Shown: positions 1,844 through 37,295, counted from the first letter of the stretch. The stretch is DNA of 64,000 nucleotides from Escherichia coli (GCF_044324875.1 NZ_CP172185.1); one strand, 5' to 3'. Notes: generated by a model not told the origin, from the letters alone. A program made the numbers and translations.

Positions 1844-4996
<3,153 letters not shown>

Positions 4997-5013
4997 TACA
5001 ACGTGTAATCACT

Positions 5014-5038
5014 AAGGCCGCGCAAGCGGCCTTTTTTA
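5014..5038 (+). terminator. Rho-independent terminator after acrB
   Basis: aggccgc / gcggcct stem followed by TTTTTT, 18 bp after the acrB stop. Confidence 0.75.
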
Positions 5039-5541
5039 TGCATAACCGACGAACATTAAGGAGTCATTGAACCACCAACTCAGGATCTCATACGAAAACC
5101 AGTATTAACCTCGCATAAAATTCATAAAAAATACTGATTGTTAGTTAATTTATATTAAGTAGCGCTAATAGATTTAATAATCCATAATCATTTAGAGGCT
5201 ATTCTTAATTATTTGCGGTAATTCTTTATTCATTCCTCGGTTATTACGTCATATTCAGAGCAATCCTGGTATTAGTGTCACCAATTTCATCTGGCGATAA
5301 TCCTGAAATGTTATGAATAGTTCGAGCAGACTGCTTTTACCTGCTGCGGGTTAGTGCTAGTATGAAAAAATGAGTCCTGTCCCGCTTCCTTCCTAATTGT
5401 AATTTTTCGTAATAATGCGATGAAAACCTGCAAAGAGTGGCTTATAGTTAAGCTAACAAACGAGAGGGCAAGTCCAGGTCAGTAAGTTTTTTCCATCCCG
5501 AAAGGTGTCCGTTAGTTCAACCACTAAGAAGGGGACGCGTT

Positions 5542-5916
5542 ATGGATGAATACTCACCCAAAAGACATGATATCGCACAGCTTAAGTTTCTCTGTGAAAC
5601 CCTGTATCATGACTGTCTTGCAAACCTTGAAGAAAGCAATCATGGCTGGGTTAACGACCCAACCTCGGCGATCAACCTCCAGTTGAATGAACTGATTGAG
5701 CATATTGCGACCTTCGCACTTAATTACAAAATTAAGTATAATGAAGACAATAAGCTCATTGAGCAGATCGACGAATATCTGGATGACACCTTTATGTTGT
5801 TCAGCAGTTATGGTATTAATATGCAGGATCTTCAGAAATGGCGGAAGTCAGGTAATCGACTATTCCGTTGTTTTGTCAATGCGACGAAAGAGAATCCTGC
5901 GAGTTTATCTTGTTAG
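5542..5916 (+). CDS. tomB: TomB (YbaJ), Hha-associated biofilm modulator
   Basis: 124-aa [28 protein letters not shown]... immediately upstream of hha. Confidence 0.93.
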
Positions 5917-5941: not shown

Positions 5942-6160
5942 ATGTCCGAAAAACCTTTAACAAAAACCGATTATTTAATGCGTTTACGTCGTTGCCAGAC
6001 AATTGACACGCTGGAGCGTGTTATCGAGAAAAATAAATACGAATTATCAGATAATGAACTGGCGGTATTTTACTCAGCCGCAGATCACCGCCTCGCCGAA
6101 TTGACCATGAATAAACTGTACGACAAGATCCCTTCCTCAGTATGGAAATTTATTCGCTAA
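5942..6160 (+). CDS. hha: Hha haemolysin expression modulator, H-NS partner
   Basis: ORF 5696..6160 trimmed to ATG 5942: [39 protein letters not shown]..., 72 aa. Confidence 0.95.
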
Positions 6161-21848: not shown

Positions 21849-22092
21849 AGCGCAATAACCTTACGTTGTTTTTATAAAAACTGTTATAAGTGCAAAATGG
21901 CATCTGAATCGATCGCAGTTTGGCATTCGAATCGATCATGATTTGGCATCCATCTCCGATCACAGTTTGGCATCACAATCGATCACGATTTGGCATGCTT
22001 CCGATCATTGATTGGCATCCTGCCAGTCACTCCGGGAATTAACTCTTTTCACCACAGTCTCCATTGCCGTGTTTAAACCAGTGGAGACGTCA

Positions 22093-23658
22093 ATGTCCAG
22101 AAAGAGAAAATCCAGGAGCACTATGGAAACCTGTTTTAAGATCCTTCAGCTCAAGTTCGACAAGAAGCTGACTAACCGTTGTATCGGACTGACGTTACAC
22201 ATCAGCGCCTCAACCGTTTTTGAGGTTCTTGCCCGCTTCAAAGCCTCTTCTCTGTCATGGCCATTACCTGCTGATATATCCCATGACACGCTGGAGAAAC
22301 TCATTTTTCCGCCCAAAGACACCTTTGCATCAGAGCTTGTAATGCCTGACATGTTGTACTTCGATACGGAAATGAGAAAACCAGGTGTGACGCGGCAACT
22401 GTTGTGGATGGAATACAAGGCACAGGCGGGTAACAAAGCGATGGGATACTCGCACTTCTGCCGTTGCTACCGGGAGTGGAAAAAAACGCGACGTCTCTCC
22501 ATGCGCCAGGAGCATCGTGCCGGCGAAAAGCTTTTTATCGACTTCTGTGGTCCTACGGTTCCTGTTATTAATCCGGACACCGGTGAGATACGCCGCGTGG
22601 CAATCTTCGTGGCCGTAATGGGGGCGTCCAACTATACCTACGTTGAAGCGTGCGAAGGTCAGGACATGATGTCATGGTTAAATGCCCACAGCCGTTGCCT
22701 GACCTTCCTGGGCGGCGTACCGAAGCTGCTCATCCCCGATAACCTCAGAAGCGCAGTGAAAAAGGCCGATCGATATGAGCCTGTCATCAACGACAGTTAT
22801 CAGGCACTGGCTGAGCACTATGGCACGGTTATCATCCCGGCCCGACCACGCAAACCTAAAGATAAACCAAAAGCAGAAAACGGCGTCCTCATCGTTGAAC
22901 GATGGCTTCTTGCCCGCATCCGTAATGAAACCTTCCACACGCTCAGGGCGCTGAATGCGCGCCTTAGGGAGTTACTGACAGACATGAATAACCGGCCAAT
23001 GAAGGGGTACGGCAATCAAACCCGTGCAGAACGCTTCCGCATACTGGATGCGCCAGCACTCTCTCCGCTGCCTCTGGCACCTTATGAATACACGGAATAC
23101 AAAGCTGTGAAGGTTGGCCCTGACTACCACGTTGAATATGCCCGTCACTGGTACTCCGTTCCACACGAACTGGTCGGTCAGCGTCTGTCACTGAAGGCGG
23201 GGCAGTCGGTGGTACAGCTCTGGCACAAGGGGCAGTGTGTGGCGCAACATCCGCGCAGCACACATGAATATAAACACACAACCAATCCGCTTCACATGCC
23301 AGAGCGCCACCGGCAGCACGGGACATGGACACCGGAACGCCTGATCGAGCAGGGAAAACGTACGGGCCCGTCCACAGGCCGGGTGGTTGAATCCATGCTG
23401 AAGGCAAAACCCCATCCGGAACTGGCTTATCGTGCAGTTCTGGGGCTGCTGGCACTTCAGAAAAAATACGGCCCGGAACGGCTGGAAAAGGCCTGTTACG
23501 TTGCCCTGCACTATAACGCCCCTGACAGACGCTTTATCGACAATCTGCTGCGTCACCATCGGGAGAACCTGGAGCTTCCATTATCCCGCCAGGGCGAACA
23601 ACATCCGGCATATGCTTCAGAGCATGAAAACCTGCGTGGTCCGGGCTACTACCACTGA
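22093..23658 (+). CDS. istA: IS21-family transposase IstA
   Basis: ORF 22012..23658 trimmed to ATG 22093 (ggagacg SD-like sequence upstream); large transposase-sized protein, IstA-like by pattern; start could instead be ATG 22123. Confidence 0.8.
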   Translation: MSRKRKSRSTMETCFKILQLKFDKKLTNRCIGLTLHISASTVFEVLARFKASSLSWPLPADISHDTLEKLIFPPKDTFASELVMPDMLYFDTEMRKPGVTRQLLWMEYKAQAGNKAMGYSHFCRCYREWKKTRRLSMRQEHRAGEKLFIDFCGPTVPVINPDTGEIRRVAIFVAVMGASNYTYVEACEGQDMMSWLNAHSRCLTFLGGVPKLLIPDNLRSAVKKADRYEPVINDSYQALAEHYGTVIIPARPRKPKDKPKAENGVLIVERWLLARIRNETFHTLRALNARLRELLTDMNNRPMKGYGNQTRAERFRILDAPALSPLPLAPYEYTEYKAVKVGPDYHVEYARHWYSVPHELVGQRLSLKAGQSVVQLWHKGQCVAQHPRSTHEYKHTTNPLHMPERHRQHGTWTPERLIEQGKRTGPSTGRVVESMLKAKPHPELAYRAVLGLLALQKKYGPERLEKACYVALHYNAPDRRFIDNLLRHHRENLELPLSRQGEQHPAYASEHENLRGPGYYH

Positions 23659-23674
23659 CAGAAGGAACAACAGT

Positions 23675-24430
23675 ATGAGTGATAACCTGTTAAACAAACT
23701 GACCCAACTGAAACTCCCGGCGATGGCCGGGAGCCTGATACGGCAGCGGGAAACGCCTCAGACCTACGACGAACTGTCGTTCGAGGAAAGGCTGACGCTG
23801 CTGGTTGATGACGAGCTTCTGAGCAGGGAAAACAGCCGTGTGGCACGGTTGAGAAAAAATGCCGGCCTGAAATACCAGGCAACACCGGAAGGGCTGCGCT
23901 ATCCGGCCTCAAGAGGTCTGCGGGCTGAACAGATGAGAGAACTGCTGAACGGCCACTACATAACCCACAGGAAAAACCTGCTGATAACCGGTCCGACAGG
24001 ATGTGGCAAGAGCTGGATAGCCAATGCGCTGGGCGAACAGGCATGTCGACAGAAACACAGCGTCCGGTACTGTAGAACCGGGCGATTACTGGAACAACTG
24101 GCTCAGGGACGTGTTGATGGCAGCTGGCTGAAATATCTGAAACAGTTGCAAAAAATACAGGTTCTAATCCTGGACGATCTGGGGCTGGAACAGTTAAGTA
24201 ACGCCCAGTGTAATGACCTTCTGGAGCTCATAGAGGATCGTTACGGACAAAGCAGCACGATAGTGGTAAGCCAGTTCCCGGTAGATAAATGGCATGGTCT
24301 GATGGAGAACCCAACAACAGCAGATGCCATCCTGGACAGACTGGTACATAACTCACACCGAGTGGTCCTTCAGGGAGAGTCACTGAGGAAAAATCCCCCG
24401 GTAGTGGAAAGCAGCGAAAAAACGCGTTAA
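23675..24430 (+). CDS. istB: IS21-family ATP-binding helper protein IstB
   Basis: ORF 23432..24430 trimmed to ATG 23675 (aagga SD), 251 aa; Walker A GPTGCGKS and Walker B VLILDDLG; 16 bp after the istA stop. Confidence 0.85.
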   Translation: MSDNLLNKLTQLKLPAMAGSLIRQRETPQTYDELSFEERLTLLVDDELLSRENSRVARLRKNAGLKYQATPEGLRYPASRGLRAEQMRELLNGHYITHRKNLLITGPTGCGKSWIANALGEQACRQKHSVRYCRTGRLLEQLAQGRVDGSWLKYLKQLQKIQVLILDDLGLEQLSNAQCNDLLELIEDRYGQSSTIVVSQFPVDKWHGLMENPTTADAILDRLVHNSHRVVLQGESLRKNPPVVESSEKTR

Positions 24431-24545
24431 AAAGCGGTAGAAAAAGTTAAGTTCCCGGTTGATCGAATGGATGCGAATCGCTGATCGGACTTCGATGCCA
24501 ATCCGTGATCGAATAGAGCGGAATACGCAATAAGTACAGAGGTCA

Positions 24546-36836: not shown

Positions 36837-37295
36837 TCTGTAAATATTATTTAGCCGTAGTAATCACTCGCCGTAATTATTGCGGCCAAATAAACATCAG
36901 CATCGCTTATTAATATTTGTTCTTTTGTGCGGCTTAGCGTCTGGAAATTATTGACGTCATTTATGAATTCTATTTTTCTTACACGATTCAGCTAATGAGT
37001 CTTTATTTTCTCACTACCCAGTTGTCACCTTAATGATAATTATTTGTTAAATAATTGTTTTATTTCGCATTGGTTATACCAATTGCCCGCCCAGACTCCT
37101 TCTGCACTCCCCTTTTGTTATAACGCCCTTTTGCAACAGCTTCTTAAAATCAACCTGATATGTTTTGCAACATATGTGACCTGGAAGCCAAATCCAAGTA
37201 ACAGGAATTTAATCATGTTTACAGTAATGTAACCTTCCCGTAAAATGCCCACACACTTTAAACGCCACCAGATCCCGTGGAATTGAGGTCGTTAA

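Follow-up and report, generated by a model that had tools for sequence, protein, structure and literature searches.

The 545-bp spacer between acrB and tomB (4997-5541) is very probably a composite non-coding control region and not a gene. All positions refer to the window, that is, the whole 64,000-nucleotide stretch of Escherichia coli DNA (NZ_CP172185.1) that was analyzed. In the arrangement that we propose, acrAB transcription would stop at a conserved intrinsic terminator at the beginning of the spacer, with Rho as a possible back-up in the C-rich segment behind it. About 350 bp of AT-rich DNA would then serve as the upstream regulatory region of tomB-hha, bound by H-NS and repressed by the operon's own Hha, and the conserved islands within it are most simply viewed as transcription-factor sites, PdhR-like in Escherichia and RcsAB-like in most other genera, together with two further motifs. 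A σ70 promoter with a weak -35 element, served by an invariant CpxR-type box centered at about -49, would initiate transcription at A5455, and the leader would contain no more than two small hairpins besides the Shine-Dalgarno sequence. For E. coli, the spacer is already explained by published work, with a terminator, an H-NS/Hha-repressed region, a CpxR-served promoter, a start site at -87, and a leader. The features are listed in Table 1.

Table 1. Features of the acrB-tomB spacer, given in window positions
Feature	Position	Strand	Remarks
acrB intrinsic terminator	5014-5039	+	terminator scan, covariation, folding
Escherichia-specific segment	5040-5117	+	C-rich, G-poor; bicyclomycin-sensitive position at its end
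Distal conserved module (candidate)	5134-5181	+	CTGATTG, GTTTATTTT, AATAAG, -10-like AATAAT at 5176-5181
RcsAB/RcsB-box-like element	5255-5268	+	E. coli copy TCAGAGCAATCCTG, 9/14
PdhR-box-like palindrome ATTAGTGTCACCAAT	5271-5285	+	one mismatch to ATTGGTNNNACCAAT
Conserved motif TTATGAAT	5311-5318	+	family form CTAAC-N4-ATGAAT-N3-TAAGGA
CpxR-type direct repeat GTAATTTTTCGTAAT	5399-5413	+	inside invariant 18-bp block ATTGTAATTTTTCGTAAT, 5396-5413
tomB-hha σ70 promoter	5420-5448	+	-35 ATGAAA 5420-5425, 17-bp spacer, -10 TATAGT 5443-5448
tomB-hha 5' untranslated leader	5455-5541	+	87 nt, start site A5455
Leader CCAUCCC	5493-5499	+	nearly invariant
Leader hairpin UUAGU/ACUAA	5512-5516 / 5523-5527	+	one pair UA 32 / GC 21
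Shine-Dalgarno AAGGGGA	5529-5535	+	in leader

The window represents part of the E. coli core chromosome, inverted relative to K-12, and the genes on its + strand follow each other in the order acrA, acrB (1847-4996), tomB (5542-5916), hha (5942-6160), and maa. The RefSeq annotation places no feature inside the acrB-tomB spacer. Relative to K-12 MG1655, the spacer carries eight substitutions and no indels, and the K-12 coordinate is therefore exactly 486250 minus the window coordinate. Of 5426 complete E. coli genomes, 5423 contain it once (identity 90-100%), and its identity is at least 95% in all but 19 complete genomes. The first-pass annotation had described the spacer as unusually long and AT-rich, and this description holds. 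Ranked by the annotation of the near-identical strain NRZ14408 (50 kb collinear), it exceeds all others among the 41 annotated spacers, whose median length is 141 nt. Its GC content of 0.382 (window, 0.508; pooled intergenic DNA, 0.442) is the fifth lowest among the local spacers of at least 100 nt. The 200 nt with the lowest GC content within the spacer (5115-5314, GC 0.28) rank second lowest across the 64 kb; GC remains at 0.28-0.29 over 5101-5314, which qualifies as an AT-rich tract, and the AT-rich run ttaattatttgcggtaattctttattcattcc covers 5205-5236. Hence, the length of the spacer is exceptional locally, while its AT-richness is marked but not unique. The window also harbors a 2.6-kb IS21 element that is absent from NRZ14408 and affects annotation transfer beyond 21.8 kb.

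Among 80 species-representative genomes from which we extracted the tomB locus, 76 have acrB upstream of it. Across these 76 other Enterobacteriaceae species the spacer measures 435-559 bp with a GC content of 0.35-0.40, indicating that both length and GC content are maintained and do not reflect chance. The alignment of 77 spacers (the 76 species plus the window) consists of conserved islands that are separated by essentially unalignable sequence. From 5' to 3', these islands are the terminator, the distal module, the palindrome, the CTAAC motif, the 18-bp block, the promoter hexamers, and parts of the leader, and their spacing relative to TATAGT is kept across genera.

The acrB terminator had been placed at 5014-5038 by the first-pass annotation. 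Our terminator scan confirms it, with an extent of 5014-5039, and its stem shows covariation. The hairpin (5014-5033) consists of an 8-bp stem (AAGGCCGC/GCGGCCTT) with six G-C pairs and a 4-nt loop, and is followed by TTTTTT, which ends at 5039. All eight stem pairs are able to form in 76-77 of the 77 species. Compensatory changes were observed for the pairs 5015/5032 (AT in 57, GC in 19) and 5018/5029 (CG in 74, TA in 1, TG in 2), and the 8 nt 3' of the stem contain four to seven T residues across species. When the spacer was folded in 150-nt segments, the one containing the terminator was the only one with significant folding (z = -2.58). The Term-seq data of Adams et al. (supplementary file 1) lack an acrB entry as well as any RNA 3' end near K-12 48121x, and use of the terminator in vivo is therefore not shown by that dataset.

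The segment that follows the terminator (5040-5117; 5040-5112 in the alignment of the spacers) fails to align outside Escherichia, and base counts between 5039 and 5120 give 21 C versus 12 G. An orphan site in the Rho table of Adams et al. (10.1101/2020.07.18.207399), at K-12 481133(-) and thus window position 5117, has a Rho score of 2.08 (p = 5.6e-6), and the RNA signal downstream of 5117 was doubled by bicyclomycin in the same study. This Rho score is ambiguous, because its 800-nt downstream window also spans tomB. The segment is possibly a zone of Rho back-up termination for acrB read-through, and the Rho data at 5117, together with those at position 5614 within tomB (see below), are compatible with an action of Rho on transcripts that read through from acrB, on the early part of tomB, or on both.

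A promoter scan identified ATGAAA-17-TATAGT (9/12 matches) as the sole promoter-like site on the + strand of the spacer. Both hexamers are kept family-wide and are the same as those given for tomB-hha by Shimada (2014). The start site of tomB-hha was mapped to K-12 480795(-), corresponding to A5455 of the window, by SMRT-Cappable-seq, where it is classified as 'same' as the RegulonDB entry. A class I start site was reported at 480020 in old coordinates (Romero 2014), which equals 480796 and window position 5454; the offset of 776 between the coordinate systems was fixed by the hha-internal start site, located at 479648 in Romero (2014) and at 480424 in the other dataset. The mapped start site is located 7 or 6 nt past T5448 (5455 or 5454, respectively). 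No further start sites are present in the spacer in these two datasets (SMRT-Cappable-seq and Romero 2014, laboratory growth), and the next upstream reverse-strand start site in both tables is that of acrA. Both datasets stem from standard laboratory growth, so that a promoter silenced by H-NS or lacking its activator would escape. The Cappable-seq supplement (PMC4782308) contains no rows for the region in either coordinate system. The long 5' leader suggested by the first-pass annotation thus shrinks to only 87 nt.

Published reporter and binding data concern the same proximal part of the spacer. The fragment from -198 to -1 of ybaJ (window 5344-5541) drives gfp expression, and the signal was higher in an hha mutant (Garcia-Contreras 2008). 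Of three predicted tomB promoters in Salmonella, only the proximal one was active, and TomB bound it in EMSA. A tomB-assigned ChIP-seq peak of σS RNA polymerase at 479920-480115 (old coordinates) corresponds to about 5359-5554 of the window, if the 776-bp offset applies. Two candidate elements were dropped: an inverted repeat around the -10 hexamer (GCTTA-TAGT-TAAGC) is not kept in Enterobacter or E. albertii, and σE-like promoters noticed by eye near -150 in Trabulsiella and Yokenella are not conserved in position and absent in E. coli.

The spacer between tomB and acrB is marked as holding an H-NS genomic-SELEX site (Shimada 2014). Together with the increased gfp signal in the hha mutant, this bears out the earlier proposal, made from base composition, of H-NS/Hha-type regulatory DNA. 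Because Hha is a product of the very operon that it represses, this amounts to negative autoregulation of an H-NS co-repressor.

CpxR recognizes the consensus GTAAA-N5-GTAAA. The box at 5399-5413 reads GTAAT-N5-GTAAT and thus contains two mismatches. The surrounding 18-bp block shows a mean identity of 0.98 over 77 species, the distance between the beginning of the box and the inferred transcription start is exactly 56 nt in 74 of 75 species, and related boxes with equal spacing to the -10 hexamer were found in Cronobacter, Erwinia, and Pantoea. The bare CpxR pattern is not enriched in the 64-kb window (59 observed versus 48 expected), and the PdhR operator pattern ATTGGTnnnACCAAT, with up to two mismatches, was found three times versus 2.75 expected by chance. 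Bare matches to either pattern are not significant alone in the 64-kb window, and their assignment rests on conservation and the literature. RegulonDB lists tomB and hha as CpxR targets, and the CpxR iModulon includes tomB. For ymoBA of Yersinia, CpxR~P was shown by EMSA to bind to a CpxR motif located 56 bp upstream of TSS2, and this motif confers Cpx-responsive activity (PMC13353760). The PdhR-like palindrome shows no conservation outside Escherichia. Published data document both the control of tomB-hha by PdhR and a genomic-SELEX peak at 480770. The PdhR 17-mer of Anzai (2020) was rejected as a spacer site, as it maps into acrB instead (4526-4542). The bases that each protein would contact in E. 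coli are inferred.

The distal half of the spacer contains three further islands. The first one, the distal module, has the family consensus CTTATTG, GTTTATTTT, AATAAG, and TATAAT, with blocks at 0.8-0.9 identity. Its -10-like hexamer reads AATAAT in the window and TATAAT in most genera. The spacing is kept, with CTTATTG some 335-350 nt and the -10-like hexamer some 294-308 nt upstream of the start site. This module is a candidate for either a silent distal promoter or a protein-binding array. A Salmonella construct that may correspond to it, 'p622', was inactive. The island closest to the promoter, the TTATGAAT motif, has a conservation of 0.9 and, in most genera, lies some 158 nt upstream of the start site.

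The palindrome between these two resembles an RcsAB box. The consensus of the RcsAB box/RcsB box is TaAGaatatTCctA, reportedly going back to work of Wehland and Bernhard from 2000; the same string is present in two Rcs papers. The palindrome reads TAAGAATATTCCTA/G or TAGGAATATTCCTA in other genera and TAAGAATATTCCTG in Salmonella, with the family consensus TAAGAATATTCCT. Most genera match the RcsAB box consensus at 12-14 of 14 positions, with a perfect 14/14 box in Kluyvera ascorbata, whereas the copies in Escherichia are degenerate (9/14). Measured against TAAGAATATTCCTA, at least 12/14 positions match in 53 of the 77 spacers and at least 11/14 in 68. Shuffled spacers reached 12/14 in 14 of 1520 cases (0.9%) and 13/14 in none, and 78 hits in 38 kb of spacers compare to three in 432 kb of flanking sequence. 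Nearly all matches lie on the + strand, and their centers are mostly located at -205 to -237 from the start site. A related palindrome lies equally far from the start site in Cronobacter and Mangrovibacter. Matches in Erwinia and Pantoea were set aside, as they are located inside an unrelated upstream ORF and are not comparable. Characterized Rcs boxes generally adjoin the -35 element (RcsB alone), are located about 100 nt upstream, or lie just past the start site for repression (flhDC). The putative RcsAB-like box described here, with its distance of about 220 nt to the mapped start site, is farther away than such boxes. A literature search returned no link of Rcs to tomB/ybaJ in titles or abstract openings, and the tomB-hha literature examined contains no description of the distal 350 bp (5040-5390), including the conserved module.

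A possible, if doubtful, reading of these patterns is that the distal half, with its CTTATTG/GTTTATTTT/AATAAG/TATAAT block, the RcsAB-type box, and the CTAAC-ATGAAT-TAAGGA motif, might be a conserved regulatory module of tomB-hha. The Rcs phosphorelay, which responds to envelope stress, would then set the level of the H-NS co-repressor Hha alongside Cpx in most Enterobacteriaceae, possibly via a silent distal promoter, and the Rcs input would have decayed in Escherichia, where a PdhR-like site is located beside the remnant. The function of the distal module is inferred.

Such a distal promoter, normally silent and using the -10-like hexamer at 5176-5181, would yield a leader of roughly 350 nt that includes the RcsAB-like box and would provide a second, stress-dependent mode of tomB-hha expression. 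This would be compatible with the composite control region as a whole, and we regard it as unlikely. The four blocks of the module are conserved at fixed spacing, and the RcsAB-like box follows about 70-80 nt downstream, also at a fixed position. On the other hand, the -35 match is poor, no start site maps there in the E. coli datasets, standard scans call no promoter at this place in E. coli, Salmonella, or Kosakonia, and p622 was inactive in Salmonella. The doubled RNA signal downstream of 5117 in the presence of bicyclomycin would fit initiation in the distal half, but it is open to other readings. Likewise, Yersinia ymoBA has a second, upstream start site, but at -188 and not at about -350. 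Among the points against the main reading, a well-conserved TATAAT-like distal hexamer is hard to explain without any initiation there, and Yersinia ymoBA uses two start sites, at -188 and -106 (PMC13353760).

The leader invites a second alternative, likewise compatible with the composite control region and about as improbable, namely that its 87 nt act as a translational or Rho-dependent attenuator. CAUCCC (5494-5499) or GUGUCC (5505-5510) would hide the ribosome-binding site, and untranslated tomB mRNA would then be terminated early. The CCAUCCC element is nearly invariant, 95% of the sequences allow CAUCCC to pair with the Shine-Dalgarno region and 92% allow GUGUYC to pair with GGAYGC, and the Shine-Dalgarno sequence is sequestered in the minimum-energy fold of the E. 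coli leader. Furthermore, the catalogue of 3' ends in 5' UTRs and ORF-internal positions by Adams et al. (10.1101/2020.07.18.207399) contains a tomB entry, a strong 3' end at K-12 480636 (window 5614), located 72 nt within the reading frame, with a significant Rho score of 1.66 and an intrinsic-terminator score of 2.7; tomB is not mentioned in the main text of that study. The RNA from the tomB start site to this 3' end would be 160 nt long and lie mostly outside 4997-5541. Against an attenuator, neither of the two Shine-Dalgarno-occluding helices, which are pairable in 92-95% of the sequences, shows compensatory changes or covariation, the CAUCCC and GUGUCC helices exclude each other, and the 3' end at 5614 is possibly a processing product. 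The folding of the E. coli leader is ordinary (z = -0.14), and the RNAalifold consensus is weak (-5.6 kcal/mol, with a covariation term of -0.26 kcal/mol). Elsewhere, the leader is 81-101 nt long. Its two small hairpins have modest support, with one to two covarying pairs each; besides the one listed in Table 1, this is a CCGA/UCGG hairpin with one pair that is GC in 49 and AU in 8 sequences, and which is disrupted in Escherichia. Three hand-specified leader structures received weak or ambiguous support.

The first-pass annotation had also considered that the spacer could hide an unannotated small RNA or a leader peptide, which is unsupported by our data: additional start sites, Rfam matches, folding, and ORF conservation all gave null results. 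We consider it very unlikely that either strand carries an independent small RNA gene with a promoter and a 3' end of its own. The spacer is long and its length is conserved, the -10-like hexamer at 5176-5181 is conserved as well, and an extended -10-like sequence, TGCTAGTAT at 5355-5363, is shared with Citrobacter and Salmonella. But the only start site of the spacer in the datasets is the one at 5454/5455, and the terminator scan found no terminator-like site in the spacer after 5039. A search against Rfam at a permissive threshold returned sub-threshold hits only, all due to the terminator hairpin (best hit uxuA, 22.8 versus 66.8 bits), and folding of ten overlapping 150-nt segments on both strands gave z scores of -0.5 to +1.2 outside the terminator segment. 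Moreover, the sequence between the islands is essentially unalignable, and the distal construct was inactive in Salmonella. A single start site near tomB, found in data from standard laboratory conditions, is the very observation that the first-pass annotation had named as speaking against an independent transcript in the spacer.

We also inspected 14 spacer ORFs of at least 7 amino acids and found no conserved small ORF among them: intact orthologues are present in none of the 76 species for 11 of the 14 and in at most six species for the others. Of the 76 species, 72 retain the ATG at 5313, but the frames starting from it encode mutually dissimilar peptides of 1-46 amino acids, and no Shine-Dalgarno-like sequence is present upstream of it in the flanks examined. 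We read this motif as one that probably acts at the DNA level and does not mark a gene. A leader peptide or small protein, such as those encoded by the 13-aa ORFs at 5313-5354 and 5067-5108 or the 21-aa ORF at 5420-5485, is thus hardly credible, even with AAGGAG 3 nt before the TTG at 5067, given that all three ORF starts precede the sole mapped start site, the ATG at 5420 coincides with the -35 hexamer, and the ORF at 5067 lies within Escherichia-specific sequence.

The composite control region agrees with what is recorded for K-12. The tomB-hha (ybaJ-hha) promoter of RegulonDB/EcoCyc is the same locus, with the same hexamers, the start site at 480795, an H-NS site, autorepression by Hha, and control by PdhR and CpxR (Shimada 2014; Garcia-Contreras 2008; Ogasawara 2007 via PMC3265435; Yan 2018). 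The proximal 200 bp do not differ from the recorded K-12 region. The orthologous ymoB-ymoA operon of Yersinia pseudotuberculosis (PMC13353760) likewise has a distance of 56 bp between its CpxR motif and the proximal start site; its leader is 106 nt long compared to 87 nt in the window, and its second start site at -188 is without counterpart in the E. coli datasets. With its low GC content, the reported H-NS binding, and the Hha-dependent repression, the spacer resembles regions silenced by H-NS/Hha, such as hly, proU, bgl, and acquired islands. Unlike these, it is core-genome DNA that was not recently acquired, with length and motif order conserved in the family, and the silenced operon encodes a partner of H-NS itself, resulting in an autoregulatory loop.

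Taken together, the window itself presents a documented tomB-hha control region and the acrB terminator without a hidden gene, and is of little further import, while the comparative result across the family is of modest value. Hha determines how strongly H-NS silences virulence and horizontally acquired genes, and tomB-hha influences biofilm formation and persistence. The candidate distal module represents a modest, testable lead for work on Hha, H-NS, and envelope stress. If true, an Rcs-type site beside the Cpx input would link two envelope-stress systems to H-NS silencing, and would explain why about 350 bp of AT-rich DNA keep their length and motif order throughout the family.

The mapped tomB-hha start site is not the only one in this operon. 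Another lies inside the tomB gene, at K-12 480424; it is present in both datasets, SMRT-Cappable-seq (Yan 2018) and Romero 2014, and the unit starting there is labelled in the former as a 'novel' hha-maa unit. Therefore, hha has a separate promoter of its own within tomB. An extended -10-like sequence (TGCTAGTAT) is located ∼90 nt upstream of the mapped tomB-hha start site, and its TGnTAnnAT form is common to E. coli, Citrobacter, and Salmonella. Neither of the two datasets lists an E. coli start site at this element. In the Yersinia ymoBA operon, transcription also starts farther upstream, at -188 (PMC13353760).

Term-seq data for K-12 (Adams et al., 10.1101/2020.07.18.207399) place one RNA 3' end 72 nt into tomB, flagged as Rho-significant, which implies a 160-nt 5' fragment consisting of the leader and 24 tomB codons. 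A second 3' end falls at the opening codons of hha. The same tables contain no 3' end for the acrB terminator, a well-conserved element, although they call a bicyclomycin-sensitive site 80 nt downstream of it.

Features discussed in the text, with their coordinates
Feature	Sequence	Coordinates
acrB terminator	window	5014-5039
Extended -10-like sequence	window	5355-5363
3' end within tomB	window	5614
tomB-internal start site	window	5826
3' end within hha	window	5943
IS21-family element	window	21850-24500
PdhR palindrome	window	37069-37083
Lowest-GC stretch	window	about 51600-53300
117-aa ORF preceding tomB	Erwinia amylovora (L085)	1504-1857
117-aa ORF preceding tomB	Pantoea sp. (L086)	1495-1848
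acrB-tomB spacer	Mangrovibacter (L088)	1155-2000

The acrB-tomB spacer is broken by an IS1 insertion in strain TUM13773, so that one or more complete E. coli genomes are affected, and 15 genomes match the spacer with less than 80% coverage. In Mangrovibacter the spacer measures 846 bp, far above its length in other genera; the added sequence is richer in G+C, TATAGT is retained, and the CpxR-type box is degenerate. In the two Erwiniaceae loci, acrB is not the upstream neighbor of tomB. Instead, tomB is preceded by a 117-aa ORF without any Pfam match. This ORF and the CpxR-like box overlap at the ORF's stop codon, and an ABC-transporter operon is located beyond the ORF.

Elsewhere in the window, ATTGGTTATACCAAT perfectly matches the PdhR consensus palindrome. 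Its approximate place, inferred via a 2,644-bp offset, is close to the spacer between ampG and cyoA or to the beginning of cyoA; PdhR is known to target cyoABCDE. Between fadM and ybaV lies a 2,644-bp IS21-family element (istA/istB, ISSso4-like). Strain NRZ14408, near-identical in other respects, lacks this element, which is multicopy in other strains, on both chromosomes and plasmids. The GC minimum (0.225 at ∼52.9 kb) falls in an accessory gene for a 'pentapeptide repeat-containing protein', flanked by yajO and pgpA. This stretch was probably acquired horizontally, because a 2.1-kb query spanning the gene is covered to at least 80% in only 932 of 5426 genomes.
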